Shown piece after piece: positions 39,530 through 62,279 of a stretch of DNA of 64,000 bases (position 1 is the first letter of the stretch; each line of letters starts with the position of its first letter). The DNA is from a virus: IMG/VR virus record IMGVR_UViG_3300017971_000032, positions 1 to 64,000 of that record. One strand, given 5' to 3'. Both the position numbers and the translations under genes were made by a program. Below the pieces are notes generated by a model. That model was not told the DNA's origin. It searched no databases and saw only the letters and a list, made by a program, of their open reading frames with translations.

Positions 39530-39711
39530 AATTAGTGTTAAAAGGCAAATCTCCAATAGTGGTCATAAATAGTACTACCAATGATGATTGGATAAAATCC
39601 TTGCCTGGACACTCTGACGAGGTAGACGTAATTGACGCATCGGCTACGGTTGGCGTTGAGAAAAAAGGCATCAGGTTGGTGAAGGGCCATGATAAAGAAG
39701 CTGAAACTTAG
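39526..39711 (+). CDS. Small protein upstream of the tagged ART-like gene
   Basis: MKLVLKG...NDDWIK; overlap-coupled. Confidence 0.5.
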   Translation: MKLVLKGKSPIVVINSTTNDDWIKSLPGHSDEVDVIDASATVGVEKKGIRLVKGHDKEAET

Positions 39712-40696
39712 GCTTGGTGAGAAAGGTGGTCCAGGCTCCGGTAATTGGGGACATGCGGGTCGTCCTGGGCTAGTGGGTGGTAGCTCTAAGCGCAGCGTAC
39801 ATTTTGGCCCTGGGGATGCTGGTGCTTGGGGTGAAGATTTGAATGCTTTCATGGATGAGCGCACTCCCGAATATGGTGATTGGCGTCGTGCTAGTCACCG
39901 TATTAGAGCTGTAGTGAAGTCGCAAATCACCGATGAGCTTTGTGAACGCACAGGCTTAGACAGGGAATTGGTACGTGATTTTATTAAGCAATGGGCCCAT
40001 TCCAGTAATGATTCAGATATGCGCTCCTTGTCCATTCAGGAGGCAGCCGCAGAGGAATTGGGTGTTGAGTTGAGTGATTGGCAAAAGGCATCCATAGAGA
40101 AAATATTGGATGTCAGTTGGATGGATGAGCAATACTCGCATTGGCCCAAAGAAACACTAGACAAAGCCAAGGCTGATTATTTCAATCGACTTGATCGCAA
40201 GCCCTTGATGCCAAGAGAGCAAGAACGCCAGCTTGTGCGTGCTATGTATGATTATACTCAGGAGGAGTTGGCCAAGGCAGGCTACAAGCCTGATGATACT
40301 ATAGAAGTGTACCGTGGCGTTACATATGGTGACACCAAACCTGATTTTGGTGAGAGTGATGTAATTAACTATAAAGGCAATGCCATTGAATCTTGGAGTG
40401 TAGGAGAGCAAGTGGCTGATGCATTTGCTGCTGGTGGGGGTGAGTTGGGCCCAATTGACCCGATGGGAATATTGGATTATGGGGCAACAATATCTATGAA
40501 TGTGCCGGTCAAGAATATAATATCTACAGCTCATACAGGGTTTGGGTGTTTAAAGGAGGGCGAGGTTATTGTGGCTGGTAACGTGCCTGGCTCCAAAGGG
40601 TTTGTAAATACACTGTTTGAGCCACCTACCCAAGAAGAGATTGATGAGTACATGAACTTGACAGGTGCGAGTGAAGTGATAGATTATTGGACTTAA
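39689..40696 (+). CDS. GGPGSGNWGH-tagged protein with C-terminal ADP-ribosyltransferase-like domain
   Basis: N-terminal tag; VYRG, ESWS, EGEVIV (R-S-E pattern). Confidence 0.65.
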   Translation: MIKKLKLRLGEKGGPGSGNWGHAGRPGLVGGSSKRSVHFGPGDAGAWGEDLNAFMDERTPEYGDWRRASHRIRAVVKSQITDELCERTGLDRELVRDFIKQWAHSSNDSDMRSLSIQEAAAEELGVELSDWQKASIEKILDVSWMDEQYSHWPKETLDKAKADYFNRLDRKPLMPREQERQLVRAMYDYTQEELAKAGYKPDDTIEVYRGVTYGDTKPDFGESDVINYKGNAIESWSVGEQVADAFAAGGGELGPIDPMGILDYGATISMNVPVKNIISTAHTGFGCLKEGEVIVAGNVPGSKGFVNTLFEPPTQEEIDEYMNLTGASEVIDYWT

Positions 40697-40697
40697 T

Positions 40698-41483
40698 ATG
40701 GATGACAAAGCATTAGCTGGCCCAATATCCCCAGAGACAGAGATACGCACTCATCCAGATGGTCAGGATTGGGTGTATTATGCTGGCCAACCTATTGTAG
40801 AGCTTGGCCGCAAGCGTGCGCTGCCTGATGAGCATTGTCATCCTGAGCCTGGGTACACTGTAGGGCGTTGTAAAATGATAAAGCGCAATGGCGAACGTTG
40901 CCGCAACCCTGTGCGCAAGGGTTGGACAGTGTGCCATTACCATGGTGCTGGCTTCCCTTCTAACCCTGGAGGTTTGAACAATAAGCAGATTGTCTCAGGG
41001 CGTCACACACCTCATCTGCCTTCCAGGCTTGTGGAAACATACCTTAACTACGCTAACAGCCCTGAGCATCTCAGTATGGCTGATGAGTTGGCCTTGCTAG
41101 ATACGCGCATGGCAGAGCTGCTGACCAGGCTAGACACGTCAGACGTGAAGCGTGCTTGGTTGAAAGTGAGACATGCACGCCAATTGTTGAACGGGGTTGA
41201 CTCGGATGATAAACGTTTGGATGATGCCATAGGTTTGTTAGATGAGGCTACGGGCATCAAAGGTGAGGACGCTGAGATATGGGATGAGATATGCGCTATT
41301 GTGGAGGAAAGACGCAAGGTTGCTGATTCAGAGCGCAAGCGTGTGACTGATGCTCAGCAAGTCATGACCTATGAGAAGGCCAATATGCTAGTGGCTTTTT
41401 TGATGTCTAGTGTCCAAACCCATGTCCAAGATCCACAGGTGCTGCGTGCCATAGCTGATGATATGAAGCGTGTTACTCTGTAA
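40698..41483 (+). CDS. Terminase small subunit candidate (HGGxSTG-like Zn finger)
   Basis: C...KRNGERCRNP...CHYHGAG followed by helical region. Confidence 0.65.
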   Translation: MDDKALAGPISPETEIRTHPDGQDWVYYAGQPIVELGRKRALPDEHCHPEPGYTVGRCKMIKRNGERCRNPVRKGWTVCHYHGAGFPSNPGGLNNKQIVSGRHTPHLPSRLVETYLNYANSPEHLSMADELALLDTRMAELLTRLDTSDVKRAWLKVRHARQLLNGVDSDDKRLDDAIGLLDEATGIKGEDAEIWDEICAIVEERRKVADSERKRVTDAQQVMTYEKANMLVAFLMSSVQTHVQDPQVLRAIADDMKRVTL

Positions 41484-41484
41484 G

Positions 41485-41496
41485 CGGTTTAGTATA
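41485..41496 (+). promoter_or_regulatory. CGGTTTAGTATA copy 5
   Basis: Exact motif just after the stop codon, before a structured RNA. Confidence 0.75.
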
Positions 41497-41499
41497 GTA

Positions 41500-41586
41500 A
41501 GTGGTGGGGGCAACGTGCCTCCTTAGGATAACCTGCAACGGGATTTGGACATCTGAATGCTTGTACTACTACTTGCCCCCACCACT
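41500..41586 (+). ncRNA. Structured RNA candidate closed by a 14-bp stem; interior contains CCTCCTTA
   Basis: agtggtgggggcaa pairs with ttgcccccaccact. Confidence 0.55.
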
Positions 41587-41653
41587 ACACAAGGTAATTA
41601 TAGCTATTGTAGTAGGTGCAGACTTTAATGTGAATCGGGAGGAGTTGCAGTTA

Positions 41654-44600
41654 TGCCAGATCCAAAGCCAGAACCAAAACCAGAAGAAGTAAAAGAAACG
41701 GAGTCCGCCCAATATGTGGATCGCCATCTTCACTACATCGAAGACATCGACAGCGAGGGAGGTCACCATGGCGATTGGATAAAGATTGAGGAGAATAAAG
41801 ATGAAAGATCTTGAACATTCCGGCCATATAGACGAGGATCAGTTCTACAGCATCGCACTAGGTGTCTTGATTGGCGGAGTGGCCGTTCTGGTAGGATTGT
41901 TGCTTGGCGTGATTGTGGGCCGACTCGGTTTGTTGGAATTGATTCTGGGGATGTGAGGTAACATGAAAGATCCAGCTGTAGGATTCTCGGCAAGGTTCCT
42001 GTTGTATGTGCTGATTCTAATAGCAATAGCAGGTGTAGGAATTGCCATATTTGATTTCTTGGGTCATCAGATCTTTGGCCCTGTGTGGGTGTGGTGATGA
42101 CAAAACACAGAGACGATTACAGGTTGGTCAACGTCAAAGGTTCAGGCATTGGCGTGATAGAGCCTGACACCTGGGCACGGATGCCAGAGGAGCTGAAGAC
42201 TGAAAACCATATTGAGGTTCTTGCTACGAACGAGGAAGTTGTCATCAGAGCAGCCTACCATTCTCATCCAGATAAGTACAACTGGAGGGACTCTGGTCAT
42301 ATAGCACCTAAGAATAAGAAATAGAAAGTGAACGATGACGGGAGGTAAGTGTGATGCCCAAGTTTGATCCTTATGATAATCCTGATTATACGATTATAGC
42401 GGCGGAGCCTGGTACGCCTGAGCATGATGCTATGTGCGAGTTCTACAACGAGGGCAACTATGGGTTTGGTGGATTGTTGATGAGGCTGGCGCTGATTCTG
42501 CTTCTTCTACCGCTTGGCACAGCATGCATATGCGCACTAATGGGAGATCCAGAACTAGTGCGACAAGTGTTAGGAATGTGATATGACCTGCCCATCTAGA
42601 CCCAACTACACTGGGTTGATATGCGTGGTTCTAGGCCTCATTTTCATATGCTGCATGGCCACCATTGCTGCACCAGACACAGTGCTAGACCTGATATTTA
42701 ACCTGGTCGTAAACTGGTGACATAGGAGAGTTTGCTCAGATTTGGGGGAGATTGATGTTCAAGAACTGGAACTTCGATTGGGAAGGAATCAAGAGCTGCG
42801 TGCTTGTTCCTATTGCTCTCGTTCTTCTCATGATCCTAATTGGAATGGTGCTAGGAAAGTGTAGCTAATGGGTGAATGCTAGTGAGTAATGTCAAAGGCT
42901 ACAATCCTGTAGGTGGATGTGGGTGTCTACTATTTGTATTGTGTATTACCGCTGTGCTAGCAATGTGTGTAGTTAACAGCATGAGGTGATTTATGGACTA
43001 CCTATTGGTGTGCGACGATGAGACTGCCAGACTATTGCAAGAGGCTTTGAACGGCCACAAGATCAAGGTAGTGCCTAAGGTTGAATCATTGGGATTCCAA
43101 CATCCTGAGGGTTCTCCTTTGCGTGAGATCAAGCGTGACGGCACTCCCACTTCCCAAATGGACAAACATGGACATAGACGGTAGTGACGAGTATGTGGAG
43201 TTCCCTGACTTCGAGGAATGGTTAGGCTTGAGGTATGGTATGCCGAAGCAGGGAACTGCAGAATATAATGTTCTGAAGCGTTTTGGGCACCGTGTCTACT
43301 TGGACAGAGCGTATCCTGAGATATTCTGCCAAACCGGAGTTTCTAAGCGGGATATATGGGGTTGGCAGCATCACTTGTACCGTTGGTACTGTGTAAGGCT
43401 AATGACCGGAGATGATGACGAGGTTGACGAGGATGCGCTCCTCGCACTTTTAGAGACAGCCCCTGTATATTATGTGCTTAACGACATCTCCGTGCCCGGA
43501 GTCACGAATATCGCGGTCAACACTAAGTGCGTGCCTGTGTGGTGGGATGGGGGCAGGGCTGTTGTGCTGTTTTGCATAGGAGATGACTTAGTACTAGCAG
43601 AAGTGCCGCAGGCTGATCTGAAAGAGACTGACAGCACTTTCAGATCTTGGGAGGATATAGAGTGATGGATGGCAAGTCTGTATACGCATTTCTAGCGGAT
43701 CCTGCTAATCGTGTGGTCAACAATGATTTGTATAATTTGGCCAAAGATTGGGCAAGGCGTGCGCAGAGTTTAGACACTACACCCACTCAGCACGAGACAG
43801 AGGAGCTGGCTGCAGCCTGTACGGCTGTGCTGGCAACAGTGCCTTATATGTATAAAGATTCAGACGAACTGGATGAGGAGTTCCTATAGGTGCGCGACAA
43901 TCACTCACTAGGCGAGATCGTCGTGGCATTGATTATAGTCACAGCCACACTGATAGTGTTGGCCGTGTTGTCGCACGGCGAGATACGTAAACATACAGAT
44001 CCAAGGTGGGTGAGTGCGGCTGCCGACATCATACAAATGGTCATACTTATGTATATAGGCAGCTGGGTGTGGCGTATATCTCACAACTTAGATGCCTTGT
44101 TGGCCATACTCAGTGGTGATGCATCACATCTAAACCCTAACTTGACTGGGTTGGTTGCGCTAGCAGTCCAGAAGTTCAAAGAGGCAGCACAAGAGCTGGA
44201 GGATAATCTCAAAGATGGCGGGAAAAAAGACTAACGTATGCAAAGACATAAAGCAATGTCCTGTATGTGGTGGTACACATCCTAATTTGAGCCTTGCCCC
44301 ATTGCCTGAAGGTGCAATGATGGAGGATTATGGCTGGAGTGAGGAGGTAACGCATTGGGGTATATGCCCAATGACCAATTCTATTATCCAAGTGAAGGTA
44401 GAAGAGGATGGGGGAGATGAGGCCTGACGACAACGAGAAGGGCCCATTGGTAACCTACTATGAAGATCTGGCAGGTGTTACCATCATTGACGTGGCCACT
44501 ATTCCTGCTGAAGTTCCAAGGCAATGCAAGACATATGTTTTGCTAAAGGGCAGGGATAGGGAAGGCAATCCTGTACGATTTATGCTGGCAATGGTTGGGG

Positions 44601-45143
44601 TTAAGAGTGCTTGTCCTGACCATGGCGATATGCTGGATGATATGATTGATGGTATTGACTTCTTTGCCCTGCAAGAAGTAAGGCAAAGGGAGCGTGGGCA
44701 GGCATTGAACAGCTTGCGCTTGCTAAAGGAGCAAGACGGTGAAGGCTGAGGAACCGCTTTCAGAGAAGGTTCTGCGCATAATGTGTGTCAATGGTACCAT
44801 ATACACGCGATCAAAGCGTTCCAATTGGGACAAATGGGCTGTGATATTGATGATTATATTGGTTGTGGCCATAATTGTAGTAAACGCTATTAGCAAGACG
44901 TTTATTTAGTAAATATGGGAGCAAGCTATGAGGCCTATAGATTTTGAAGATGCTCAGGAAACGTTAGCCCAAGAATTTGTTATAAGCGAGATCCAACGGG
45001 TGATCAACGAACATGAAGCACGCAAGCGTTTTGAAATGATCAAAGCACGCAAGCGTTGGGAGCGTCATTGGCGCACACGTCTGTCCAAATGGCTAAGGTC
45101 TGTGGCGCATCATGTAGCGTTGCCGGAGCCGCCTGAGTGCTAG
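41654..45143 (+). other. Run of small hypothetical ORFs, several predicted membrane peptides (e.g. 42351-42581, 43168-43665, 43890-44234, 44408-44749, 44928-45143)
   Basis: Dense coupled short ORFs, no recognisable motifs. Confidence 0.5.
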
Positions 45144-46687
45144 ATATAGAAGCGTTTCAACAGCCTGACCAGCCTGACTTGGCTAACAGGCTAATACAAG
45201 AATGGGCGGACAAGCTCACATTTGGTGGCCCTATAGATGCTAATAACCCTATAGAGTCACCTACTGAATGGATACAAACCAACTTCCTGATTGACAGGCC
45301 AAGGGAGCCGGTTACAGGAAGAGTGTTACCTAAAGGACCAATACGTCTGGCAGAGTATCAAGCCAGGGTTGTAGAAGAAGCGCTACGGCGTGACGCTGAC
45401 GGCAAGCTCATTTACAATACAATAGTGTGGTCAGAGCCAAAGAAATCAGGCAAGACGGCTGTAGCAGCAGGCGTAGGTATGTATATGGGACAGACTAATG
45501 AGGCCTGCCACATATACTGCCTGGCTAATGACGGCAAGCAATCCCAAGACCGCATATTCAATGCAATGGCCAGATCTATCCAGCTACATAATAAGCTTGG
45601 TGGATGCTATGTAGGGCTGAAAGCCACATACTCTCCGCCTACGATAGTCTTGCCCAACCGTACTAAGATTGAAGCTATCCCGTGCGACGCAGCGGGCGAA
45701 GCTGGATCAGAACCATTGATGACGATATGGTCAGAGCTGTGGGGCTATGCTCAGAAGCACAAAGAGCGCATTTGGACAGAGTTGACTATACCTCCTACAC
45801 TTCACGGCTACGCAATGCGTTGGGTTGAGAGTTATGCAGGCTATGAGGATGAATCCACCACTCTTTGGAATCTATATGATGTAGGAGTCAATCATGGCAA
45901 GCGGCATCCCCATTTCTCTGAGTTGCCTGTATATGTGAATGAGGCTGCCAAGCAACTGACATTTTGGTCTCACGAGCCCAGGCAGCCTTGGCAGACTAAA
46001 GACTACTATGCTGCTGAATCGCTGTTGCTGACACCTAATGAGTTCACGCGTATTCACTGCAACCAGTGGATCACATCTGTGACCTCATTGTTTGAGGACA
46101 TTATCACTTGGGACAAGTGTGCTAACCCTAATATTGCCAGACCACTGTTGCCAGGAGATGATACCCCACTAGTACTAGCAATGGATGCAGCCTACGCCAA
46201 TGATTGTGCGGCTATTGTGGGAGTGACACGTCATCCAGATGATGAGTGGGATGCTGAGCACAGACGTGTCATAGAACGTGTAGCATTGGTTTGGGAACCG
46301 CCCAAAGGTGATAAACTCAATTTTACCCTTACTTTAGAGCCAGCCATCATTGAGCTTTGTGAGGAGATGAACGTTTACACAGTTGTGTATGACCCATACC
46401 AGCTACACAAATTTGCCACGGATATGATGATGCAAGGCATTGCCCCATTCAAAGAGTTTTCGCAGGCTGGTAGGCGATTGCGGGCAGACAGACAGTTTTA
46501 CGATATGGTCATCCATCGTCATTACATACATTCAGGCAATGACGATATGAGACAGCATGTACGCAACTGTGCCAAGAAGGAAGAGGGCAAGAACTTGAGA
46601 TTAGTCAAGAAGTCACCCACTAAGCCCATTGACTTGGCCGTGGCCACATCAATGGCAGTGGATGAGTGCTTGAGGTTAAATATCTAG
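45137..46687 (+). CDS. terL: Terminase large subunit
   Basis: RLAEYQ adenine motif, EPKKSGKT Walker A, nuclease AMD...D, VYDPYQ, PIDLAVA. Confidence 0.9.
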   Translation: MLDIEAFQQPDQPDLANRLIQEWADKLTFGGPIDANNPIESPTEWIQTNFLIDRPREPVTGRVLPKGPIRLAEYQARVVEEALRRDADGKLIYNTIVWSEPKKSGKTAVAAGVGMYMGQTNEACHIYCLANDGKQSQDRIFNAMARSIQLHNKLGGCYVGLKATYSPPTIVLPNRTKIEAIPCDAAGEAGSEPLMTIWSELWGYAQKHKERIWTELTIPPTLHGYAMRWVESYAGYEDESTTLWNLYDVGVNHGKRHPHFSELPVYVNEAAKQLTFWSHEPRQPWQTKDYYAAESLLLTPNEFTRIHCNQWITSVTSLFEDIITWDKCANPNIARPLLPGDDTPLVLAMDAAYANDCAAIVGVTRHPDDEWDAEHRRVIERVALVWEPPKGDKLNFTLTLEPAIIELCEEMNVYTVVYDPYQLHKFATDMMMQGIAPFKEFSQAGRRLRADRQFYDMVIHRHYIHSGNDDMRQHVRNCAKKEEGKNLRLVKKSPTKPIDLAVATSMAVDECLRLNI

Positions 46688-46688
46688 T

Positions 46689-46883
46689 ATGAGTACTCCA
46701 GAGACTAAACACACAGGAAAGTTCCGCAGAGTAGGACGTCAATGCCGCCCGCCAGCACAACCACGCCAGCGCACTTGCAAGGGTTGTAATATTCCTATGG
46801 AATGGGTATGCACAGGCCACAATGACCGTACGGGCAAGGCATACGGATATTGGATTTGCCCTGAATGCGGAGAGACCAAATGA
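46689..46883 (+). CDS. Zn-ribbon protein (paralog of 47109-47351)
   Basis: CKGCNIPMEWV...GYWICPEC. Confidence 0.55.
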   Translation: MSTPETKHTGKFRRVGRQCRPPAQPRQRTCKGCNIPMEWVCTGHNDRTGKAYGYWICPECGETK

Positions 46884-47107
46884 GCATAGTAATGATCACA
46901 ATTCCAGACGAGGGCCATCCATTGCATATAGTGGAGTGGGATTCACCAGCAGTGTTTATATACGTCCCACGTGACAATCCAGACATCACTATAGAGCATA
47001 CTACTGAAGGTGATAAGCTCAATTTTACCCTTGCTATAAAGCCGGCTATTACAAAGCTTTGTAATAGCCTGAGACATCTGATTTGCCTGGCACCAGAAAG
47101 GTCATAG
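46880..47107 (+). CDS. Small protein containing a copy of a terminase nuclease-domain segment
   Basis: GDKLNFTLAIKPAITKLC vs TerL GDKLNFTLTLEPAIIELC. Confidence 0.5.
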   Translation: MSIVMITIPDEGHPLHIVEWDSPAVFIYVPRDNPDITIEHTTEGDKLNFTLAIKPAITKLCNSLRHLICLAPERS

Positions 47108-47108
47108 A

Positions 47109-47351
47109 ATGGATGAGCAAACACAATCCGTTGAGATTATTGAACCAAATTTAAGCGTTGATTGCCGTAATTGCGACATTGCTATGGAATGGGTGCCTAC
47201 GGACATAGTTGATCATCCTGAGGACGTAGACGCCAAGTGTCGTATAGGGTATTATCAGTGTCCTGAATGCCAAAGGACCACATGGCTGATAACACCATAC
47301 AATAATCCAGGTGCATATGGTATAGGAGAGGAGCCATTAGAGAATGGATGA
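47109..47351 (+). CDS. Zn-ribbon protein
   Basis: CRNCDIAMEWV...GYYQCPEC. Confidence 0.55.
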   Translation: MDEQTQSVEIIEPNLSVDCRNCDIAMEWVPTDIVDHPEDVDAKCRIGYYQCPECQRTTWLITPYNNPGAYGIGEEPLENG

Positions 47352-47571
47352 GGAAGGACGAGACCCAAGAGTAGGAATGACTATAGGAGTAACAGCCAGT
47401 ATAGGGAACTATCAATCCTTGAAAGTATCCGTATATGCGGAGATGTGCGTACTACCAGGGGAGACTACTACCCGAGCCTTGGACGTATTACAGAAGCATC
47501 TCCTACAGGAGCTATACGATCGTGCGAAGGAGATAGAAGGGGGCTTAAGGGATAACGGTATAGTAAGATAG
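47344..47571 (+). CDS. Hypothetical protein
   Basis: GVTASIGNYQSLKV; last + strand ORF before the switch. Confidence 0.55.
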   Translation: MDEEGRDPRVGMTIGVTASIGNYQSLKVSVYAEMCVLPGETTTRALDVLQKHLLQELYDRAKEIEGGLRDNGIVR

Positions 47572-47886
47572 ATCTAAAGCAATAAGGTATAAGGCTAAAG
47601 GAGCTTATGTCTAGGGGCTTATAGGCTAACATATTTGTAGGGGGCAGAGCATCTCCTATAAGTCCTTAGGTATAGGCTCCTTTATAGTGTATATAGGGGA
47701 GAGGGATAGTATGTGGGGGAGGGGAGTGGGTACGGATATGTATGGGGGTGTAGGAGTATATGTAGTGATGGGATATGGGCATAGGGATGGAGGGAGTGTG
47801 TAGAATAGACAAATATCCCCCCTTGCCTCCCCTCTTGCTAAACGCTCCCCTAGCACTAGCTCCCTCCTATAGGAGCGCAGCACAAC

Positions 47887-47917
47887 AGCCTATCAGTTAG
47901 CCATTAACTGATAGGCT
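47887..47917. terminator. 13-bp hairpin at the convergent strand switch (probable terminator)
   Basis: agcctatcagtta-gccat-taactgataggct followed by ttatttat. Confidence 0.7.
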
Positions 47918-48146
47918 TTATTTATAGCGCTATGTAATTGTACAGGCAATAATTATTGCCTGGCGCGCATGGCATGGGGTGGGGTGTGTTTGTATATTAC
48001 TGTGGTCAGAACAACTCGGGAAAACTTTATACTTGCCAACCAATTTTTGAATACTGGCCCAAGCAAGTATTTATGGGGATATATGGGAATAGGTATAGGG
48101 GAGTATATACAGGGTGTACGTGCTCCCCTATACCTACGGGCACTGC

Positions 48147-48485
48147 CTACTCGTACCGCTCCAATAGACTATTCACAGCAGACCTTATAGAGTGGCCTTC
48201 AGCATGCCCTACTACTTCATGGAGGCTACTTTCCAAGAAAGCGTAGCAGTGTCCTTCACTACCTTCCACTACTACTCTGAGACTCCCATTCAGTACATCT
48301 TCCTCCACATAGCTACTCTTCTCCTCTTGGCGCTTTGGCCTATCTTCTTCTACCGCAGCTTCCCAACCAGCTTGCCAATCATCATGGGCAATCGTTCCTG
48401 GTTCATATGGATTATCCTGTCCACCATACCAATAAAACCGACAACCTTGCCTATAGGCTCTTGACTTCAAGCGTGACTTGTTCAT
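48147..48485 (-). CDS. Hypothetical protein with RMF-like AYxxG..NPY..WxxGW motif
   Basis: AYRQG...NPY...DWQAGW. Confidence 0.5.
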   Translation of the reverse strand: MNKSRLKSRAYRQGCRFYWYGGQDNPYEPGTIAHDDWQAGWEAAVEEDRPKRQEEKSSYVEEDVLNGSLRVVVEGSEGHCYAFLESSLHEVVGHAEGHSIRSAVNSLLERYE

Positions 48486-49291: not shown

Positions 49292-49304
49292 TTTTGGTGC
49301 CTCC

Positions 49305-49923: not shown

Positions 49924-49932
49924 GTCAACATC

Positions 49933-52085: not shown

Positions 52086-52191
52086 GCACTTTCTCCTTCT
52101 TGCTTAGAGTGTGTCGGGTTTGGCTCTAACAGCTACGGAGAATGTCTTCTTCGTAGCTGTAGGGGCCAAACAGCCCCTAGCAGATCTATAA

Positions 52192-52881: not shown

Positions 52882-52927
52882 CTGCTTTCTCCTTATAAGA
52901 TAGCGTCAGGTTTGGCCCCTGACGGAT

Positions 52928-53248: not shown

Positions 53249-53266
53249 CTGCTTGCTCCTTATGGG

Positions 53267-53384
53267 CTTGGTCTTGCTCTTGTAAAATCCTACTATGCCC
53301 TTATTATAGCTGAGAAGCATTAGAATCGCATTAGAATTTTATTAGAATTTGTTATGAAATTGGTAAAGAAACTATTAAAACCAT
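53267..53384 (-). repeat. 118-bp promoter-containing direct repeat, copy 1
   Basis: One mismatch to 57396-57513; phased ATTCTAAT boxes, TATAAT. Confidence 0.9.
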
Positions 53385-53509
53385 GCCTGTCCATTCTGAG
53401 CCATTATATAGCCATGAATCCAAACACGACCTTATAATAGCTCATGCGGATCTACACCGAAAGCCAATGCAAAGCAGTACATAGCCGAACTGGCGGTCTT
53501 GTCCTCATC

Positions 53510-55292
53510 TTACTCACTGTCATCACCTGTATGGACATGATAATAGCAGGCTATTCTTGACAGATTTACATCTGGCAGCGGAACCACCTCCTTCAAGCGT
53601 TCACCATAAGCTTGCGGATCTGACAATGCTTCTGATGCAGTTGGCCCTACATCCTCCAGGTTGATCTCACACATGTACACGAGGTGATGCCACCAATAAT
53701 TAGCGTCCACAGGTTCCTCGTTTAATAACCTCACCTCACATTGACTCCAACTCTTAGACAAGCTCCTATTGCCTGCAGGCACTATTAGTAGATACACATC
53801 CATGACAATCACTCCATGTAGTAGAACAGCACATCCACGGTGCGGGCATCCACGCGCTTCATCTCACTGAACTCCCAATACTCCGCATCTTCGTACACTC
53901 TGTTCACGTAAGACCTGGCCCACGCACGCACCTTGTGCATATCATTATTAGGTATAGCATCACCTATGTCTTCCGTGATGATGCGCACACGCAACACTTG
54001 CTCCAAGAACTTGACTGCCAGATCCATTAGCGTGGCCTGTATATCAGATCCACTGGAGCACCGATACGGGACAGCAGCCAAGCCAGCTTCAATGCCTCAT
54101 AAAGTGGCTTAATGACTGTCACTACGCTTCCATCAATCTTACGATACATAACTACACACATGTCACTTCTCCTTTGGCTCAGGCAGTTCTTCAGGGAATG
54201 GTACTGGCTTCTGAACCTTCTTGCGCATCTCCTCACGCTCCTTCAGGATTTGCTTGGCGGTCTCCACTGCACTCGGCACTTTCTTCTTGTCCGCCATCTG
54301 ATACCCTCCTGTCTGTCAATATGTCTTTCATCCTATCAATCTCGATTTGTGGCCCTTTCAAATCCCAATCAGCAGTCTCTATGTCTTGGGCAACTCTCGC
54401 AAATCGCCTTCTGGCATGATTCATGTCATGTAGCTCTTCAACAAGCGTGGCTATGTTGTGATTGATAGCGCGCAATGTGCCTGTGATGGCTTTGATCTCA
54501 TATAAGATTGCGCTAAATTGTGCTCCATCCATGATAACTACTCCTTAAGGATGTGGTCTAGGCTCCACTTATCCTTCATGCGTTGTATGGCTGCATCCAT
54601 ATCCTCTTCTGTCTCAAGCCATTTGCCCTCATGCATGTCGTACAGACCTATAGGCTTGCCTTGGTCATCTACTTCCGTGACGAAGCTGGAGGACATGGAA
54701 GCAGCCATCTTCCTGGCTCTCTCAAAATCGCAATATGGGTATGGGCCTGCTAGATACATGACTAGTAATCAATCCTCCCACGTGTTGATGTTAAGCATAC
54801 GGCAGAAATATCGTGCTGCTTGGCTGTTGGGCCCCTCAGCCCTGTATGCTATCACAAATGCGATAGCACTGTCAAGTGTAGGCCATGAGTGGTGTGTGTC
54901 CTTGCCATCAACAAATGGATGAAATGATGCGTCTTCCTCATACCCATCTCCTCTGTTAGGGTGATAGTATTCCACGATGTCATACACATCAATGGAGTGC
55001 GTGGCTACATATTGGCCCCACTTGAATCCACCCTTCCATCTGGCTCCAACACTCTCTTCCAGATCTGTCTTCGTTTCCTCATTCATTCGAGTGCCTCCGG
55101 GTGACGGTCAGTAAATGAGCCCATCCATTGGGACAAGACAAGACGTGCTGTAGGCTTGTCCAGATCGAACTCCTCTTGGAGATATGGGGCAGCCCCAAAC
55201 ATATTAGTGGAGCCTGACTCGCGCAGGTCATCCAAATATTCGTACATCTCCTCAAGTTCCTCTTCATCAATGATCTTGACTTCAACGTCCAT
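53510..55292 (-). other. Run of small early-type hypothetical ORFs (53510-53812, 53809-54081, 54233-54532, 54538-54759, 54769-55086, 55083-55292)
   Basis: Coupled short ORFs with RBSs. Confidence 0.55.
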
Positions 55293-55306
55293 CTTAACAC
55301 CTCCGC

Positions 55307-55318
55307 TATACTAAACCT
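55307..55318 (-). promoter_or_regulatory. Promoter motif variant AGGTTTAGTATA
   Basis: One mismatch; followed by gc-GGAGGT RBS. Confidence 0.65.
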
Positions 55319-55327
55319 GCGTGAATA

Positions 55328-56971
55328 TTAGCTATCAACGAATCCAAGATAGTCCTTGGATCGTGTCAAAGCCACATACAGTATGTTATCTTCTTGAACT
55401 TGTTGCCAGGGCTGTGTTGCTAACGGATGTGGCATAAGGTCTGGACGTAGAATGTATACTCTCTCAGCCTCAGTACCCTTGGCCCTGTGAACCGATGATA
55501 ATATGATGGCCTTGCGGGTGACGTCATCGAAGATCTTGCGGATGTGATGTCGCAGATCCGACAGATCCCTCATCCCATCGCACAAAGCCTCCAAAGTGTC
55601 GCATCTGTCATACAGGCTGGCAATCTTCTCTTCTTTGTCAGCTGCCTTCAGTCTAGCAGCCTCACGGTGTTTGTACAACCGCAGCTCCGTTAGAAGTGCT
55701 GTAATGGTCTGTCGCTCCGGTGGGGTGTCCCTTAGCAATCTGTCGATCATGTTGTTAAGCATCTGGCCGATGTTGCGTCCACGGATGACTGCCTTGCGCC
55801 CCTGGCGAATGAATGAGTAGCAAGTCTTAACTAGTGGGGCATTGACTCTGCAAAGCACCAAATCCTCTTCTTGGACTTGCTGGTTGAAGGCATATTCTGA
55901 TAGGTGCTCAATTTCACCCTCCTTAGCCCAAGGTGCCGGTTCTGTCGTGATATGGGGGAAGTGTTGACGAACCAGATCCAAATGGGAAGTGGGGTTGCGG
56001 TAGGAGATTGACAAAGGCAGCTCATCGGCTTCGAGCGCTGCCTTCAATCTGGGCATAGCCTCCGTGTCCGCTCCACGGAATCCATAAATGGACTGTTTAG
56101 CATCACCCACGGCCACGATGCGCCCGTCCCCGTTGGTCAGCTTGAGCGCCAATTGGATTTGGCAAGCGTTCAGATCCTGGCACTCGTCAATGAAAACGTA
56201 GTCGTACTTGCCGATGTTTATGTCGAACACGACAGGCATCCAGATCATGTCATCGAAGTCGATGATGTATGTGCGTTCTTTGCACATTTGGAGTGCAACG
56301 GGCAGTAGCTCTATCAGCCTGTCTGCATCCCCATTCAACTCAATCTCGTACCTGGAAGCCATAGCATCCACTGCCTCACGGTCTGTCGGATCCACCAGTG
56401 TTGCTTTAGCCAAAGACACCATCTTCTTGAGTGGTGCCCGCAGGGATTGATCCTTGTGGGTAGGCAGCAGCTCCTTGCAAATGTTCCAGACCTTAGATGT
56501 GTCCAGCTCAGGCCTGCCAGGCAGATAATTGCTCAGTGCCCGTAGCCCTATGGAGTGAAGAGTGCCAGCGCTGACGTGGGGCGGCACTTTGGCTGCCAAC
56601 TCATCAGCCATGTCCTTGCTAAAGGTGCAGTACAGCACCTTGGCGTCTTTGGGCGTGAGCTTGAGTGCTTGAACAGCGGTGGTGGTCTTGCCGGAGCCTG
56701 CATCAGCTCCAACTACGATGTGGCCAGTGCCTTGTTCAATCTTGTCGAAGATGGCTTGCTGGAAGTGGGATGGGGTGAATTGGCGCTTAGGCTTGGATTG
56801 AGATAACTCCAGCATCCGCTTGACTGACTTGACTGACCGCGTGCCTTTGCACTTGGGGTACTTGGAGCATCCGTAGAATGCCCCATAACGCCCATTGCGC
56901 AAGACCATGGGCGAACTGCAATCTGGACAATTAACTTGTATATGCTTGTCGGGTAGCACTTGCTTAGACAT
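55328..56971 (-). CDS. UvrD/Rep-like SF1 helicase with N-terminal topoisomerase-type C4 Zn finger
   Basis: CPDC...FYGCSKYPKC; AGSGKTT, DECQD, VGDAKQSIYGFRGA, HRAKG, YVALTR. Confidence 0.9.
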   Translation of the reverse strand: MSKQVLPDKHIQVNCPDCSSPMVLRNGRYGAFYGCSKYPKCKGTRSVKSVKRMLELSQSKPKRQFTPSHFQQAIFDKIEQGTGHIVVGADAGSGKTTTAVQALKLTPKDAKVLYCTFSKDMADELAAKVPPHVSAGTLHSIGLRALSNYLPGRPELDTSKVWNICKELLPTHKDQSLRAPLKKMVSLAKATLVDPTDREAVDAMASRYEIELNGDADRLIELLPVALQMCKERTYIIDFDDMIWMPVVFDINIGKYDYVFIDECQDLNACQIQLALKLTNGDGRIVAVGDAKQSIYGFRGADTEAMPRLKAALEADELPLSISYRNPTSHLDLVRQHFPHITTEPAPWAKEGEIEHLSEYAFNQQVQEEDLVLCRVNAPLVKTCYSFIRQGRKAVIRGRNIGQMLNNMIDRLLRDTPPERQTITALLTELRLYKHREAARLKAADKEEKIASLYDRCDTLEALCDGMRDLSDLRHHIRKIFDDVTRKAIILSSVHRAKGTEAERVYILRPDLMPHPLATQPWQQVQEDNILYVALTRSKDYLGFVDS

Positions 56972-56972
56972 G

Positions 56973-57167
56973 CTAGCATCCTTTTTGACAATCTGGGCAA
57001 ATGGTCTCAGAGAACAGCCCTTTTGTGCGGGAGCGCCAGCCTTTTGGCAGTGCCGCTGCTTGGCTAGAGCCCTTGGCCTTGGCCTCACCTTCTGCCCCGC
57101 AACGGGAGCAGGTGACCTTGACTGTGGCTATAAGTCTTTGGCGCTTCCTGGTGTAAGTGTTAGGCAT
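56973..57167 (-). CDS. Small Zn-finger protein
   Basis: CSRC...CPDC. Confidence 0.5.
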   Translation of the reverse strand: MPNTYTRKRQRLIATVKVTCSRCGAEGEAKAKGSSQAAALPKGWRSRTKGLFSETICPDCQKGC

Positions 57168-57395
57168 CTTTGACCTCGTCATAAGGGTACAAAATGGGCT
57201 ACTCCATGCATAACTAGTGCCCAGACCGCTTTCTTGCCTTCTCTTTTGTGCTTTTATTGATGGTCAGATTGGACAATCCATAAATCCTTGCGTAATGGTC
57301 AATTATTGCCCTTGCTCTTTTTTCTGTCATCACGTATCCTACATATAGCAATTTGTTTCCTGCGCTAATTTGAAGTATCATCTGCCTGCTGCCTC

Positions 57396-57513
57396 CTTGG
57401 TCTTGCTCTTGTAAAATCCTACTATGCCCTCATTATAGCTGAGAAGCATTAGAATCGCATTAGAATTTTATTAGAATTTGTTATGAAATTGGTAAAGAAA
57501 CTATTAAAACCAT
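57396..57513 (-). repeat. 118-bp promoter-containing direct repeat, copy 2
   Basis: Near-identical to 53267-53384. Confidence 0.9.
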
Positions 57514-57758
57514 CACATTTGCCCGTTGCGTTCCAACAAAGCTTCAGCAGCCAGTAGCACCATCTCCGCTGCATCCCCATCTACAGCTACGCGCAGACCT
57601 TTGCCGAACTTGAGCTCCTCTCCAGAGCGGTGCATCTTCCTCATGTCCAGCCATAGCTTGTCGTACTGATCTATCAATGTTATGCGGATGGGGGACAGAG
57701 AATCTTCCAGCACTGTAACCTCATCCACTACTGTACCATACTTGTCTTGCTTTGACAT
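57513..57758 (-). CDS. PC4/YdbC-like ssDNA-binding or coactivator protein
   Basis: LDMRK...KFGKGLRV. Confidence 0.6.
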   Translation of the reverse strand: MSKQDKYGTVVDEVTVLEDSLSPIRITLIDQYDKLWLDMRKMHRSGEELKFGKGLRVAVDGDAAEMVLLAAEALLERNGQM

Positions 57759-57770
57759 ACCCACCTCCGA

Positions 57771-57782
57771 TATACTAAACCG
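57771..57782 (-). promoter_or_regulatory. CGGTTTAGTATA copy (minus strand)
   Basis: tatactaaaccg on + strand; followed by tc-GGAGGT RBS. Confidence 0.75.
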
Positions 57783-58124
57783 GCAGACATATTGCCTCAT
57801 AAAATCAAACACGACCTTATAAGAGCTTGGCCTAATCCAAGCTATTTGTTGGGCGTTAATGATAATCCATACCAGTCCATGCGCATCACTAGCGGAGGAA
57901 GGGAAGGGGGAGGGGATCCTCCCGTAGGGAGGAGGGGAGGGGGAAGGGATGGTGGTCTACGAGTTCTAGGGCTACGAAGTTATATTTGATGGTATACTAT
58001 TCCTCATCTACTCGTCCTCCCTACGGGAGGACTCCTAGATGAACAGCTTCGCTGTTGGAGGACATGCAATATATCCAAACATACATGAGGTGTTGAAAAT
58101 GAGTGGAAGACCTCATATTCGTAG

Positions 58125-58136
58125 CGGTTTAGTATA
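58125..58136 (+). promoter_or_regulatory. CGGTTTAGTATA copy upstream of the portal/head operon
   Basis: Exact motif. Confidence 0.75.
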
Positions 58137-58175
58137 CTAGCGTCATATTTACAGTGGTGAGCAAGGAGATGTGGA

Positions 58176-60695
58176 TTGAGCAAGAAGCCGTTTAGCGTAC
58201 AACAAGCACAGAATGTCGAGCCATTAGATCTCGGCATGTCTCTGCCAATAACATTCTTCTCCAACCAGGAGATAGCTCCTGAATGGGATGCGGCTGATAG
58301 GGACGCTTGGCTGCGTAAATTTTGGAAGATGTTTGGTAATGACATGCTACAGGGTGTCTTGGCTGCTAGTGTAGCTAAGGTTCAAACCCAGAACTGGGAG
58401 CTGGAAGGGCCAGAAGGTCTGGTTGACTTGTACCATCCTATCATGCGGGATGACGCTAACTTTGGCAAAGGCTATGGCGATCTGGTAGCCAGGGGTGTGG
58501 TTGACTACTACACACAGGATAATGGATGGTTTATGGAACGTCAGCGTTCTGGCGCTAAAGACCACGAAGGCCCCATGTTAGGTTTGGCTCACCTAGATTC
58601 TGCTCGCATGAGACCTACAGGCAATGCTGACTATCCATACATATACATGGATGTGTATGGAGAGCATCACTTAATGCATCGTTCTCAGTTCATAAGAATT
58701 GTGGACATGCCTAATCCTAAGACTGAGCTTCACGGTTGGGACAAAGGATTCTGTGCTTTGTCCAGAGCACTCTCCACTGCTCTCATATTGACAATGCTCG
58801 TGACGCTGAAACAAGAGAAGCTATCAGATCTGCCTCCCTCAGCGCTGGCAATCTTCAACAACCTAACACGCAAACAGTTTGAGAAGGCTATATCACTATA
58901 TGGGGCGCAGGAGGACATGAAAAACAACACTGTTTGGCGTTCTCTCATGCCTCTGTTTGGTATAGATCCAGCCCATCCAGCCAGCGTTCAATTCATATCA
59001 TTACGGGAAGTGTGGGAGTCATATGATGACATGACTGCCATGAATATTGCTGCATACTCGTTTGCGGCTGCTTGGCGCATAGATCCACGTGAATTTTGGC
59101 CGGTCTCTCAAGGCCCACTCGGCACTGGCAAGGAGGCAGAGGTTCAGCATCAGAAGGCCAAGGCTAAGTCCACAGGGTTGTTGTTCACAGAGATTGAACG
59201 TGCCTTCAATGCTCGTGAGAGCTTGCCGGATGGGTTGACATTCAAATATGCGCTTCAGGATGCAGATGAGGAACAGCAACGTGCAGCTATACACCAGCTT
59301 CAGATAGGCAATGTAAAGACTATGCAAGAAGCTGGTGCGTCGTTGACACCGGACGAGGTACGATGGATATTATCTACACAGTACAGGATACTGCCTAGAG
59401 AATTGGCTAAAGTGCCTGCCGAGGGTGAGGAGTTCAATCTGGTCAACGCCCGTATGTATCTGGATGACGTGGAGCGTCAGGCCAAAGAGTATCATGGATG
59501 GTACTGGGGGCCATGTGTAAGGATGGATGCCTACGGCAAGAAGGAGATGGCATCCCCTGGCGGATCCAGGTTGCCTACAGGCATAATGTATTTAGGTGAG
59601 AAGGGTGGTCCAGGTAGCGGGAATTGGGGACATGCGGGTCGTCCTGGGATGGTTGGTGGTAGTGCTAAGCGTGGTGGAGGTATTGCTGGTGTAACTTTGG
59701 TGGATAGGGCCAGTGAGGTAATGCAGGATGATGGTGGTAGTTTAAGATATTATATAATGCCTGATGGGAAACTAGCGGATGTGTCGGGAACTGATGATGG
59801 TGCAAGCGAATGCACCCATGCCGAATATGCGGCAAGGTTTCCAGGTTTATTTGGTATAGACAAGAAGCCAATGACTTTGGAAGAAATATGGCAAACGCAT
59901 ACTGGGTTGAGCGTGGAAGTGGCAAAGGAATATTTGCAGGATGTGAATGATGCAGGTGCTATAACGGTTTTACAATATGGCAATCAAATTGGACTTGCAG
60001 GCAATTTGCCAATCACGACTCCAAACTTACGTAAAATACATTCTTGGTTGGATAAGGGTAAATTGCCTGTAAGACGCAACTCCACATATGCATGGCAAGA
60101 TATGTCGAGCGGAAAATCTGTTACAGTTAGTTATGATGATTTGATAACGTCCAGAAATGTGAGAGATTTGCAAGTGTTATCTAAGGAGCTCAATGACAAT
60201 CTTGTCTTTGGATCCAAAGAAGCATTAACTGATGGTTTGAAGGGGCAATTTACCTGTTGTGAGAGCCATGCGGCTCAGATGTTCCCAGACATAGTCAATG
60301 ATTTGTTTGAGTTAGGCTATCTGTCTGTGGAAGAGGCTTGCAAAGCCAGTATGGCTCCATCTGCTTGGGTGTATGGTGTAGCAGGCGCGATTGCTCCAGC
60401 TACTGCTGGCAAGCGTGATGTCTTGCTGGCTGCTGCCGAGGAAATTTCACGTTGCTTGGGTGAAGTTGAATTTGCTTTGGGGGAGAAGGAGAGCAAGGGG
60501 TTGCAGACCATCAACCAAAAGATAGCATCCCTGCCTGCCCCTATTGCACGCACCGTTCGAGACAATGCCAAACGTTTACAGGGTGCCATGAATTCAACAA
60601 CCAAACGCAGACAGAATGCTTTGAAGGCTATTCCTGATGAGTTGTGGGATGAATGGGTGGCTGAGGATGAGTTGGCAGAGCAAATAGGGACTTGA
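58176..60695 (+). CDS. Portal protein with long C-terminal extension containing the GGPGSGNWGH tag and a cargo domain
   Basis: Portal-like N-terminal ~430 aa (DNGWFME, LAHLDS, AWRIDPREFW); first gene of the head operon. Confidence 0.7.
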   Translation: MSKKPFSVQQAQNVEPLDLGMSLPITFFSNQEIAPEWDAADRDAWLRKFWKMFGNDMLQGVLAASVAKVQTQNWELEGPEGLVDLYHPIMRDDANFGKGYGDLVARGVVDYYTQDNGWFMERQRSGAKDHEGPMLGLAHLDSARMRPTGNADYPYIYMDVYGEHHLMHRSQFIRIVDMPNPKTELHGWDKGFCALSRALSTALILTMLVTLKQEKLSDLPPSALAIFNNLTRKQFEKAISLYGAQEDMKNNTVWRSLMPLFGIDPAHPASVQFISLREVWESYDDMTAMNIAAYSFAAAWRIDPREFWPVSQGPLGTGKEAEVQHQKAKAKSTGLLFTEIERAFNARESLPDGLTFKYALQDADEEQQRAAIHQLQIGNVKTMQEAGASLTPDEVRWILSTQYRILPRELAKVPAEGEEFNLVNARMYLDDVERQAKEYHGWYWGPCVRMDAYGKKEMASPGGSRLPTGIMYLGEKGGPGSGNWGHAGRPGMVGGSAKRGGGIAGVTLVDRASEVMQDDGGSLRYYIMPDGKLADVSGTDDGASECTHAEYAARFPGLFGIDKKPMTLEEIWQTHTGLSVEVAKEYLQDVNDAGAITVLQYGNQIGLAGNLPITTPNLRKIHSWLDKGKLPVRRNSTYAWQDMSSGKSVTVSYDDLITSRNVRDLQVLSKELNDNLVFGSKEALTDGLKGQFTCCESHAAQMFPDIVNDLFELGYLSVEEACKASMAPSAWVYGVAGAIAPATAGKRDVLLAAAEEISRCLGEVEFALGEKESKGLQTINQKIASLPAPIARTVRDNAKRLQGAMNSTTKRRQNALKAIPDELWDEWVAEDELAEQIGT

Positions 60696-60698
60696 CAT

Positions 60699-62279
60699 AT
60701 GCCACCACGTCAATGGGAGCCAATAGTTGAAGATTTCTCTGTGGTGATGAAGAAGGTACACCTTCTCTTTCGCCGTGATCAAGTGGACATTGAAAATATA
60801 TATGCCGAGATCTTCCGTGAGAAGCGTGAGGCCTACGAGGATGGATTGGCAATCCAAGCAGCTAATGTAGGATGTGCTGGCAGACGTGGCATCACTCCGC
60901 CTGATGTGATGAAGGAAATTAGTGATGAGGCTCACACGGAGGCAGCTGGCATAGCTAATACATACAACTACGATTTGGCTTTGGCTGTGAGGGCCATTCG
61001 TACTGAGACGCCACGTGCCAACCGTTGGACATATGCTAAACGTTTGGGTGAGTGGGAAGCCACGCGTGACGAGTGGAAGAGCAAGCAAATATCGCTGTGG
61101 AATCAGATGAAGTGGCAAGACCGTGCCACACGTGATTTCATGCAACACAACCCACAAGCATTGAAGGGTTGGGCCAAGGTTGAGCCATCTGGTCGCGCAG
61201 TTTGCGATGTGTGTCAATATTGGGTCAATCGGGGCAAGGTGTCCATAGATGAGACACGCAAACAAGAATGGCCAGCTCATCTGAATTGTCCTCATTATTG
61301 GGATGTGCATTACACAGGCAAGGTGGATTGCAAGGAGCTGTGGCTTGGCGCACCATTGCGTGAGTGGTGGGAGGGCAAGGAGATTGGAGAGAAAGGTGGC
61401 CCTGGTTCTGGTAACTGGGGACACGCAGGTCGTCCTGGAATGGTAGGTGGTAGTGCTAAGCGTAGCGTGGCCATGTCTATCAGAACTGGTAGAGATTGGC
61501 AGGAAAGACAACAAGCAGCCAAGAAGATGGCCGAAGCTCAGAAGGCATCTGTGGCTGGTGTGGAAGGGGAATGTAAGCGTGCTATTGATGAATTTATTGG
61601 GGACATTAGTTATGGCCCAGGTGCTTTTGATAATCTGGTAGAGATAAATGATGACGACATTAAAGCCATGTTTGGATTGGGTCATATGGATTATAGGGCT
61701 GATATTAAGGTGATCACTGTGGGAGAGCATGGCAATGTGACCAGACTTGAGATAGATTATTATGATGCGGATGGATCTACAGTAGCCAATGTGGCAAGAG
61801 AGTTGCGCAGGATGGGTGGTGAGGAATGGATGGCATACAACGAGCTGTTGGATGTAATGCCTGAGTATCAGGACAAGGGCATAGCAACCAGTTTGTATAA
61901 TAGGCAGATATACACATTAAGGAATGCCGGTGCATCTGAAATTCAATTATATGCTAATATATCTATAGGACGTTATGCATGGGCCAAAAAGGGGTTTGAT
62001 TATAAGGAAGGCAGCAAGAAATATACGTTGAGACGGGTCAATAGCAATTTTAGGAAATGGGCAGATGACAAGGGCATTCCTGAGCCTTCTGGGGGTTGGC
62101 CTACATTTGATTCAGCCCATAGCGTAGCCACATATAGTCACCCCACTCACACAGTGAAAGGATCGGACATATACAATGATGATGTGGCTGATGATTATGT
62201 TATGCACTTAGGCAAAGCGTTCATGTTGGAATTGCATCACGGGCATGGGCCATGGAATGGCGTATTGAAGTTGAACTGA
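60699..62279 (+). CDS. Head morphogenesis (MuF/gp7-like) protein fused via the tag to a GNAT-like domain
   Basis: CDVC...WPAHLNCPH; VMPEYQDKGIAT...GRYAWAKKGF. Confidence 0.7.
   Translation: MPPRQWEPIVEDFSVVMKKVHLLFRRDQVDIENIYAEIFREKREAYEDGLAIQAANVGCAGRRGITPPDVMKEISDEAHTEAAGIANTYNYDLALAVRAIRTETPRANRWTYAKRLGEWEATRDEWKSKQISLWNQMKWQDRATRDFMQHNPQALKGWAKVEPSGRAVCDVCQYWVNRGKVSIDETRKQEWPAHLNCPHYWDVHYTGKVDCKELWLGAPLREWWEGKEIGEKGGPGSGNWGHAGRPGMVGGSAKRSVAMSIRTGRDWQERQQAAKKMAEAQKASVAGVEGECKRAIDEFIGDISYGPGAFDNLVEINDDDIKAMFGLGHMDYRADIKVITVGEHGNVTRLEIDYYDADGSTVANVARELRRMGGEEWMAYNELLDVMPEYQDKGIATSLYNRQIYTLRNAGASEIQLYANISIGRYAWAKKGFDYKEGSKKYTLRRVNSNFRKWADDKGIPEPSGGWPTFDSAHSVATYSHPTHTVKGSDIYNDDVADDYVMHLGKAFMLELHHGHGPWNGVLKLN

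Follow-up and report, generated by a model that had tools for sequence, protein, structure and literature searches.

A widespread 20-residue peptide at module junctions of six proteins of an uncultured phage, and its possible role in a system of head-carried cargo

The virus record IMGVR_UViG_3300017971_000032 of IMG/VR spans 77,500 bp and, given its 123-bp terminal direct repeat, is probably a complete genome. Here we describe a peptide of 20 residues, hereafter called the tag, that this genome encodes six times, always on the + strand, and that joins a carrier domain or a short leader to a variable region that we call the cargo. Three copies lie in the first 64,000 nucleotides of the record, the stretch that was analysed and that we call the window, and three lie beyond its end, at approximately 65.97, 71.10 and 73.98 kb of the genome. 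A preliminary description of the window had counted three tagged proteins, a number that the full genome raises to six. From the data presented below, the tag is a genuine junction element, under strong selection and very widely distributed, for which this genome provides a six-gene example with three kinds of carrier. The features of the window are listed here in order of position, with the source of each assignment in brackets (HMM, hidden Markov model; AF2, AlphaFold2; ORF, open reading frame; ART, ADP-ribosyltransferase).

39689..39724, + strand: N-terminal leader of 12 residues, MIKKLKLRLGEK, ending in a candidate protease site with K before GG
39725..39784, + strand: tag copy A, with the 20-residue core GGPGSGNWGHAGRPGLVGGS (translation, DNA pattern, HMM)
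39785..40696, + strand: cargo A, a helical domain and an ART-like beta domain (alignment, AF2 model)
58176..59603, + strand: portal core, residues 1-476, ending in MYLGEK (homologues)
59604..59663, + strand: tag copy B (translation, DNA pattern, HMM)
59664..60218, + strand: cargo B, about 185 residues, ending in LVFGSK, a second candidate site (sequence comparison)
60219..60695, + strand: portal tail with a CCESHA motif (common to portals with and without cargo)
60699..61394, + strand: MuF-like head-protein domain, residues 1-232, ending in EIGEK (ESM Atlas structure search)
61395..61454, + strand: tag copy C (translation, DNA pattern, HMM)
61455..62279, + strand: cargo C, a short SVAMSIRTGRDW module and then a GNAT-like domain (Pfam, PHROG, homologues)
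62287..62415, + strand: strongly acidic ORF of 42 residues, directly behind the MuF-tag-GNAT gene (translation only)
62728..64000, + strand: prohead protease with a scaffold-like acidic, helical C-terminus, the ORF continuing to genome position 64041 (AF2 model, alignment)

The core consensus of the tag is GGPGSGN[F/H/W]GHxGRPG[E/K/Q][V/R]GGS. An HMM of the tag finds six matches of 38 to 50 bits in the genome, and the next best match scores 5 bits. A degenerate DNA pattern for the core likewise finds exactly three sites in the window, where 0 are expected from 100 shuffles. The preliminary description had reported a 26-residue tag at 39716-39793, 59595-59672 and 61386-61463, and these intervals do encode the peptide given there, the first with L and SS and the other two with M and SA at the variable positions. 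However, it is the 20-residue core beginning at GG that is conserved, and the GEK that precedes it is lineage-specific and stands outside the universal tag.

The six copies differ by 106 synonymous and 8 non-synonymous codon changes, the latter all exchanges of L and M at one position. For the pairs of copies in the window, the synonymous and non-synonymous differences are 5/1, 10/1 and 9/0, respectively. Even codon families have been switched, as evident by the use of both TCN and AGY for Ser and of both CGT and AGA for Arg. In their nucleotides, the copies are 85% identical over the core, compared with 34-38% over the 60-nucleotide flanks on each side. Because of this synonymous excess and the divergence of the flanks, we conclude that the copies are old and that the peptide, not the DNA, is under selection, which bears out what had been proposed for the first three copies. 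An assembly artefact at repeats was considered and rejected, since the copies share no exact run of 31 nucleotides or more and the same proteins are found on two to three independent contigs of ~77.5 kb.

Tagged proteins are by no means confined to this genome. A pattern scan of IMG/VR recovered at least 114 stretches, and the matches listed comprise 254 tags in 194 ORFs, with one to five tags per ORF and up to nine per locus. In these listed matches, the flanks that lay outside the search pattern (GG before and GGS after) are 93-96% conserved, and successive tags in an ORF are spaced 108-695 residues apart, which corresponds to one domain. A profile search of 1.84 billion protein-cluster representatives returned 6,397 at E ≤ 1e-3, including 164 at E ≤ 1e-30, with a maximum of 10 tags per protein and lengths of up to 3,154 residues. 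Pfam domains recognised in 57 multi-tag proteins include ADPrib_exo_Tox (8), ART-PolyVal (5), Phage_Mu_F (5), GNAT (2-3), zeta toxin (1) and an XkdF-type head protease (1), and the majority of modules in tagged proteins have no Pfam match. Where the tag is N-terminal, many viral contigs have a short leader ahead of it that is specific to the phage.

Other collections yielded few matches. No solved structure containing the tag was found by sequence search of the PDB. A tblastn search of GenBank phages with the 26-residue tag gave no match, probably owing to the low-complexity filter, and blastn with the tag DNA gave a single weak match (E 2), such that no cultured tagged phage was found among them. 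Among the 120 bacterial loci listed for the DNA pattern, one (L185, from an uncultured Clostridiales genome) carries the full tag. The other 119 arose by chance in GC-rich genomes, and the scan is therefore uninformative about host range. Searches of the open-access literature by motif string and by topic found no published description of the tag, although one may exist elsewhere.

The residue immediately before the tag behaves very differently from its neighbours. We examined 150 proteins that carry at least three tags (543 tags) and found that the residue just before GG (P1) is identical in 82.5% of the pairs within a protein, compared with 25% (maximum 30%) after shuffling. Identity within proteins is 10-23% at P2 and P4-P6, which is barely above chance, and 33% versus 14% at P3. 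P1 divides the proteins into classes with N, D, F, H or K, with R (often as V/I-x-R), with L or A where P3 is R/K, and with E where P3 is L/M. Sites of trans-acting proteases look like this, with P1 constant, P3 semi-constant and P2 free. Therefore, the cut between K and GG that had been predicted for this phage fits the wider set, in which the preceding residue stays the same within a protein and differs between proteins according to lineage.

The protease of phage T4 cuts by the rule L-x-E. A Pfam typing of 50 tagged viral records found an S78 protease in four, an S77 protease in one and the family of this phage's own protease in one. On contigs with S78 or with the protease type of this phage, the residue before the tag is K, and once R, and the single contig with a T4 gp21-type S77 protease has LLE before GG. 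Positions within the tag also covary significantly with the preceding residue, for example the R class with a GSGHHGH variant. This covariation is confounded by lineage, and we have not used it as a sign of contact between tag and protease.

The first of the carriers encoded in the head region is the portal protein. It has 839 residues, and its residues 1-470 have 119 homologues, most of them 460-560 residues long and devoid of an extension. The protein itself has no sequence match in Pfam, PHROG or the PDB. Its homologue P0079 (42% identity, E 1e-91) carries PF04860 (Phage_portal), and the position of the gene ahead of the MuF-like, protease and capsid genes fits the portal identity. Extended portal homologues have the tag at residues 450-505 in nearly all cases, always behind K, and K is the residue before the tag in 15 of 15 tagged members of the family. 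The closest portal, P0036 (79% identity), has neither the tag nor the ~185 residues with which the extension starts, and keeps the tail with CCESHA. Therefore, the tag and cargo B constitute an insertion between the core, at LGEK, and the tail, which begins after FGSK. Three candidate h-G-x-K sites are present in the portal extension (residues 473-476, 678-681 and 768-771), the third being an LGEK within the tail, and from the candidate sites that flank it, cargo B could be excisable at both ends. Cargo B has no match in Pfam, PHROG or Atlas. Homology was found with P0021, a tagged protein that is free-standing, and with the cargo on portals P0038, P0060 and P0066.

The MuF-like protein is the second carrier. 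Its residues 1-218 match, with a template-modelling score of 0.78, an Atlas cluster in which 47% of the members carry PF04233, and clusters of portal-MuF fusions are matched as well. A feature search in Atlas with the domain gave 0.93 to a 'head morphogenesis' cluster, and no Pfam match to PF04233 was found at E ≤ 0.1. Cargo C, which follows tag copy C, matches PF00583 with E 0.0063 and 17.2 bits, below the cut-off of 20.7 bits, and over residues 375-417 only. It also matches phrog_27103 and phrog_25452, is related to Bacillus phage Shanette gp87 and, together with its tag, is 34% identical (E 3e-41) to the tag and cargo on portal homologue P0051.

The free-standing tagged gene at 39689 begins with its 12-residue leader, and leaders of 10-12 residues ending in K before GG are found in three genes of the genome. 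In the AF2 model, leader and tag are predicted to be disordered (predicted local distance difference test score ~30). Cargo A has no Pfam match. Its conserved residues are R209, the SWS at 235-237 and E290-x-E292; R209, W236 and E292 are invariant in the alignment, and E290 is present. The fold matches of the AF2 model are weak (VIA Z of 4.8 or less, Foldseek E 0.01), and almost all of the top ~13 matches are R-S-E ADP-ribosyltransferases (CDTa, C2-I, Vis, ART2.2, C3 and ExoS). The labels ART-like for cargo A and GNAT-like for cargo C, as used in the preliminary description, are thus plausible, but both fall below formal thresholds.

The domain of cargo A is also found behind the tag on portal homologues P0082, P0089 and P0126. 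Cargos A and C thus occur on tagged portals and cargo B in free-standing form, as expected if cargo is interchangeable. There is no sequence similarity among the three regions behind the tags of the window, in keeping with the earlier statement that each copy precedes an unrelated domain. A similar picture emerges from a 10-residue leader, MTITLLVRVK, that together with the tag is identical in two ORFs of this genome and in two ORFs of viral contig L079, from a relative, since all four cargos behind it are unrelated. Downstream domains likewise vary among homologues, where invariant ones had been named as an argument against a cargo system. These comparisons of sequence support the view that cargo can be exchanged among portal, MuF-like and free-standing forms.

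Of the three tags beyond the window, the fourth is in a 195-residue ORF, behind a zinc-ribbon, and the fifth and sixth are at the N-termini of ORFs of 148 and 170 residues. Three of the tagged genes lie on or beside the head genes, whose order is portal, MuF-like, protease and capsid. The zinc-ribbon ahead of the fourth tag (L001:3754-3945, genome 65753-65944) is homologous to an insert in the N-terminal region of prohead-protease homologues (P0198, E 4e-18; P0158, E 2e-14). Because this zinc-ribbon is present both in a tagged ORF and in protease homologues, the module moves between cargo carrier and protease.

Prohead serine proteases of clan SH include HK97 gp4 (S78), T4 gp21 (S77) and herpesvirus assemblin. 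The protease of this phage was assigned by structure. Residues 76-217 of its AF2 model match T4 gp21 (5jbl) with a VIA Z of 11.4 and a root-mean-square deviation of 3.3 Å over 132 of 165 residues. The next VIA matches are ~25 herpesvirus assemblins (Z 5-7.8), and 5jbl is also the top Foldseek match (probability 1.00, E 3.6e-3). H131 and S186, the latter in the motif GWGTSHGY, are invariant in 33 homologues and presumably form the catalytic pair. No Pfam match to S78 or S77 was found, and PF04586 and PF14550 are also unmatched in its 32 homologues. The prohead-protease fold and the invariant His and Ser therefore agree with the preliminary description, but its designation of the enzyme as HK97-type, and as one that cuts after Lys, is best regarded as a prediction. 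The N-terminus of the protease (62728-62790) has a conserved NPxLKGIxPP, at which several homologues carry inserted zinc-ribbons and PF27290, and the LK followed by G in this motif may be another candidate cleavage site.

Several observations on neighbouring sequences are reported here in their own right. The SVAMSIRTGRDW module directly behind tag copy C (61464-61500) also occurs in more than 10 otherwise different metagenome proteins. In Shanette, gp87 and gp88 (L116:5317-9862, KC595513.2) are adjacent, lie upstream of the portal gene, and have a common N-terminal motif, approximately GKLVKRAVQVKG..GRTFTRMQW, which looks like a second, unrelated tag with the same job in SPO1-like phages. The GNAT-like domain of cargo C is present in gp87 as well. 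The 42-residue acidic ORF could, judging from its translation and position, encode an immunity or inhibitor partner, or might not be a gene.

The free-standing tagged gene has a PDDEXK endonuclease gene as its upstream neighbour (39071-39529; PF24608, E 8e-30), and a 5'-3' exonuclease is encoded further upstream, at 37766-38689. The TerL gene (45137-46687) lies 4.4 kb downstream of the tagged gene. Minus-strand genes occupy ~10 kb between TerL and the portal gene at 58176, such that packaging and head modules are split; among their products are a UvrD-like helicase that has a Top1 zinc-ribbon and an AAA_5 ATPase. A protein of 982 residues (L001:4361-7309, genome 66360-69308) has one GT4 and two GT2 glycosyltransferase domains (PF00535, E 1.5e-48). 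Unusually for an enzyme of this kind, its gene separates the capsid gene from the tail genes. Among the tail genes, a 493-residue protein (L001:9629-11110, genome 71628-73109) has BNR/Asp-box repeats that suggest a sialidase-like beta-propeller, and could be a receptor-binding protein or depolymerase.

We lean, somewhat cautiously, towards a reading in which the tag serves as junction element in a modular system of cargo proteins that are carried in the head and freed by the prohead protease. Each precursor would begin with a leader of 10-12 residues or with a carrier, which may be the portal core, the MuF-like domain or the zinc-ribbon. It would continue with a short, lineage-specific protease site, which here is h-G-x-K or V-x-V-K, the universal 20-residue tag, a short Gly/Ser spacer and a variable cargo. 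The carrier or leader would take the precursor into the procapsid, the prohead protease encoded from 62728 would cut between K and GG, and the cargo, with the tag as its new N-terminus, would stay in the head and exit with the DNA. The data show the architecture, the selection on the peptide and its spread, the exchange of cargo, the lineage-specific preceding residue and the protease fold, whereas packaging, cleavage and ejection are steps that we infer.

Several points weigh against this reading. Half of the six tagged genes lie away from the head block, in one case among genes for DNA metabolism and in two cases among tail genes. For tagged proteins, we found neither a virion proteome nor an N-terminal sequence nor a cleavage assay. 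The relation between protease type and preceding residue comes from six contigs only, one of them T4-type, with proteases found in 5 of 50 records. No h-G-x-K site was found in the capsid or protease-scaffold proteins, which are the expected substrates of the protease. The uniformity of P1 within proteins could stem in part from duplication of modules, although the variable P2 and P4-P6 argue otherwise. Finally, a protease site alone does not explain why the 20 residues that follow it are nearly invariant.

This last point bears on what the tag itself does. The tag is near-invariant across phages that differ in their sites and proteases, and therefore it must be more than a spacer. The synonymous divergence of the copies excludes a purely DNA-level role. 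Our preferred guess is that the tag is a disordered prime-side segment of the protease substrate that also serves in retention or exit. The options that remain for its role are that assemblin-fold proteases dock on it from the prime side, that it signals retention, or that it acts as an exit leader. A bolder version, which we put forward only tentatively, is that the tag is a universal handle for cargo in tailed phages. Prohead proteases of the assemblin fold would recognise it from the prime side whatever their P1 preference, and it would then stay on the freed cargo as a retention or exit signal. If this were true, anything placed behind leader, site and tag would be loaded, processed and delivered across a very wide range of phages.

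It is also conceivable, if unlikely, that the tag itself is a loading or retention peptide, akin to the targeting peptides of encapsulins. Its partner would be some conserved component inside the procapsid, for example the packaged DNA, the protease, the scaffold or the HK97-fold shell, and the preceding residue would matter just for later trimming. Such a peptide would account for the near-invariance of the tag across very different phages and would suit its predicted disorder. Its G-R-P core also recalls AT-hooks. The tag is present even though portal and MuF carriers are already in the head, which speaks for a function of this kind. Against it, a net charge of only about +1 is weak for DNA binding, and a single conserved binding site is hardly to be expected given how far the sequences of capsid, scaffold and portal proteins diverge. 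Moreover, the phage-specific leaders on free-standing cargos look like the real address, and a polyprotein needs one address, not up to 10 of them.

It appears improbable to us that the tag acts primarily in exit or entry, as a flexible N-terminal leader that guides the freed cargo along the channel of portal and tail or, once in the cell, contacts a conserved host factor. A cut before GG would make the disordered, glycine-rich tag the new N-terminus of every cargo, and two of the tagged genes are in the tail region beside the tape-measure gene. Threading, however, needs no invariant His, Arg, Pro or aromatic residue. We know of no such motif in the ejection proteins of P22, T7 and T4.

Another possibility, which we judge to be quite improbable, is that tagged proteins are not virion cargo at all, such that the tag would be a self-processing element or an intracellular signal and its head context incidental. 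One tagged gene does stand among genes for DNA metabolism (the 5'-3' exonuclease and the PDDEXK nuclease), most cargo domains have no known function, and packaging is deduced. However, at least two cargos are bound to enter the procapsid, being fused to the portal and to the MuF-like protein, and tagged proteins elsewhere repeatedly include domains of the MuF, portal and prohead-protease types. In addition, the preceding residue varies by lineage as it would for a trans-acting protease, unlike the fixed chemistry of self-cleavage. Least credible of all is the notion that the tag is mainly a recombination anchor at the DNA level, or an inert linker, that permits in-frame cassette swaps by a peptide without function. 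In its favour, tags sit exactly at module boundaries, the same cargos follow tags on different carriers, and copies share exact runs of up to ~27 nucleotides. Against it, the 106:8 codon differences and the Ser and Arg family switches reveal a peptide held constant while its DNA drifts, and 20 inert residues would not persist over thousands of lineages. The anchor role suggested in the preliminary description is therefore weak, and shuffling is better seen as a by-product.

The reading of the tag as a junction element of head-carried cargo invites comparison with known systems, and capsid-targeting leaders of T4 that are cut by gp21 are the closest working analogue. Internal proteins of T4 have an N-terminal leader of ~10 residues that ends in a prohead-protease site, and the cargo includes an ADP-ribosyltransferase. 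To our knowledge, T4 has no conserved peptide behind the cut, and the leader alone is the address. This phage has leaders of similar length (10-12 residues) that end in a candidate site and a protease that shares the gp21 fold, and one tagged contig with a gp21-type protease has L-x-E before the tag. Unlike in T4, a universal 20-residue tag lies behind the site and would remain on the mature cargo, and structural proteins are among the carriers. The removal by gp21 of the capsid-targeting sequence from IPI-III and Alt is covered by reviews (PMC9026906, PMC9958956).

Cargo-loading peptides of encapsulins, which are short, conserved, glycine-rich and disordered, direct unrelated enzymes into an HK97-fold shell, and are usually found at the extreme C-terminus without a link to proteolysis. 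The tag described here is likewise short, conserved, glycine-rich and predicted to be disordered, and has a differing motif.

Polyvalent proteins are another precedent. As described by Iyer et al. 2017 (PMC5512222), effector domains such as ART-PolyVal, GNAT and zeta toxin occur in tandem, or as fusions to MuF or portal domains, in phages with portal-terminase packaging. These proteins are predicted to be packaged and injected, and are proposed to be processed mainly by zincin-like metallopeptidase domains. The wider set of tagged proteins has the same domain repertoire, although the cargos of this phage itself are assigned at the level of motifs or below threshold. Portal core with cargo and MuF-like domain with GNAT-like domain each form one ORF here as well, and TerL is present. 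The signature at the junctions points instead to a prohead serine protease, and the modules occupy six genes, of which three are free-standing and have a short leader ahead of the tag.

MuF polymorphic toxins of temperate phages, as outlined by Jamet et al. 2017 (PMC5576092) and Zhang et al. 2012 (PMC3482391), combine an N-terminal MuF domain with a variable C-terminal enzyme or toxin, are encoded beside the portal gene, and may be followed by a small ORF that is a candidate immunity gene. The MuF-like domain of this phage precedes a GNAT-like domain that also occurs on other carriers, its gene adjoins the portal gene, and the small ORF behind it is a candidate immunity gene. It differs in that MuF is recognised here only by structure, and the tag is also found on the portal, on a zinc-ribbon protein and on genes with only a leader. 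The claim that this arrangement exceeds the MuF-toxin layout must be tempered, because fusions of effectors to portals are not new, as is clear already from PMC5512222. The tag, however, is apparently undescribed, and text searches in PMC5512222, PMC5576092 and PMC3482391 found no description of a conserved junction peptide.

Phages inject proteins together with their DNA, including enzymes for anti-defence and host takeover, and how such proteins are addressed to the capsid is understood in few model phages. If the tag is indeed the junction element of a cargo system, candidate injected effectors, most of which have no known domain, could be listed in metagenomes from sequence alone, and capsid loading and release would become directly testable. 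The tag could also serve as a transferable handle by which proteins of choice are loaded into phage heads. Moreover, the lineage-specific residue that precedes it may read out the specificity of prohead proteases across uncultured phages.

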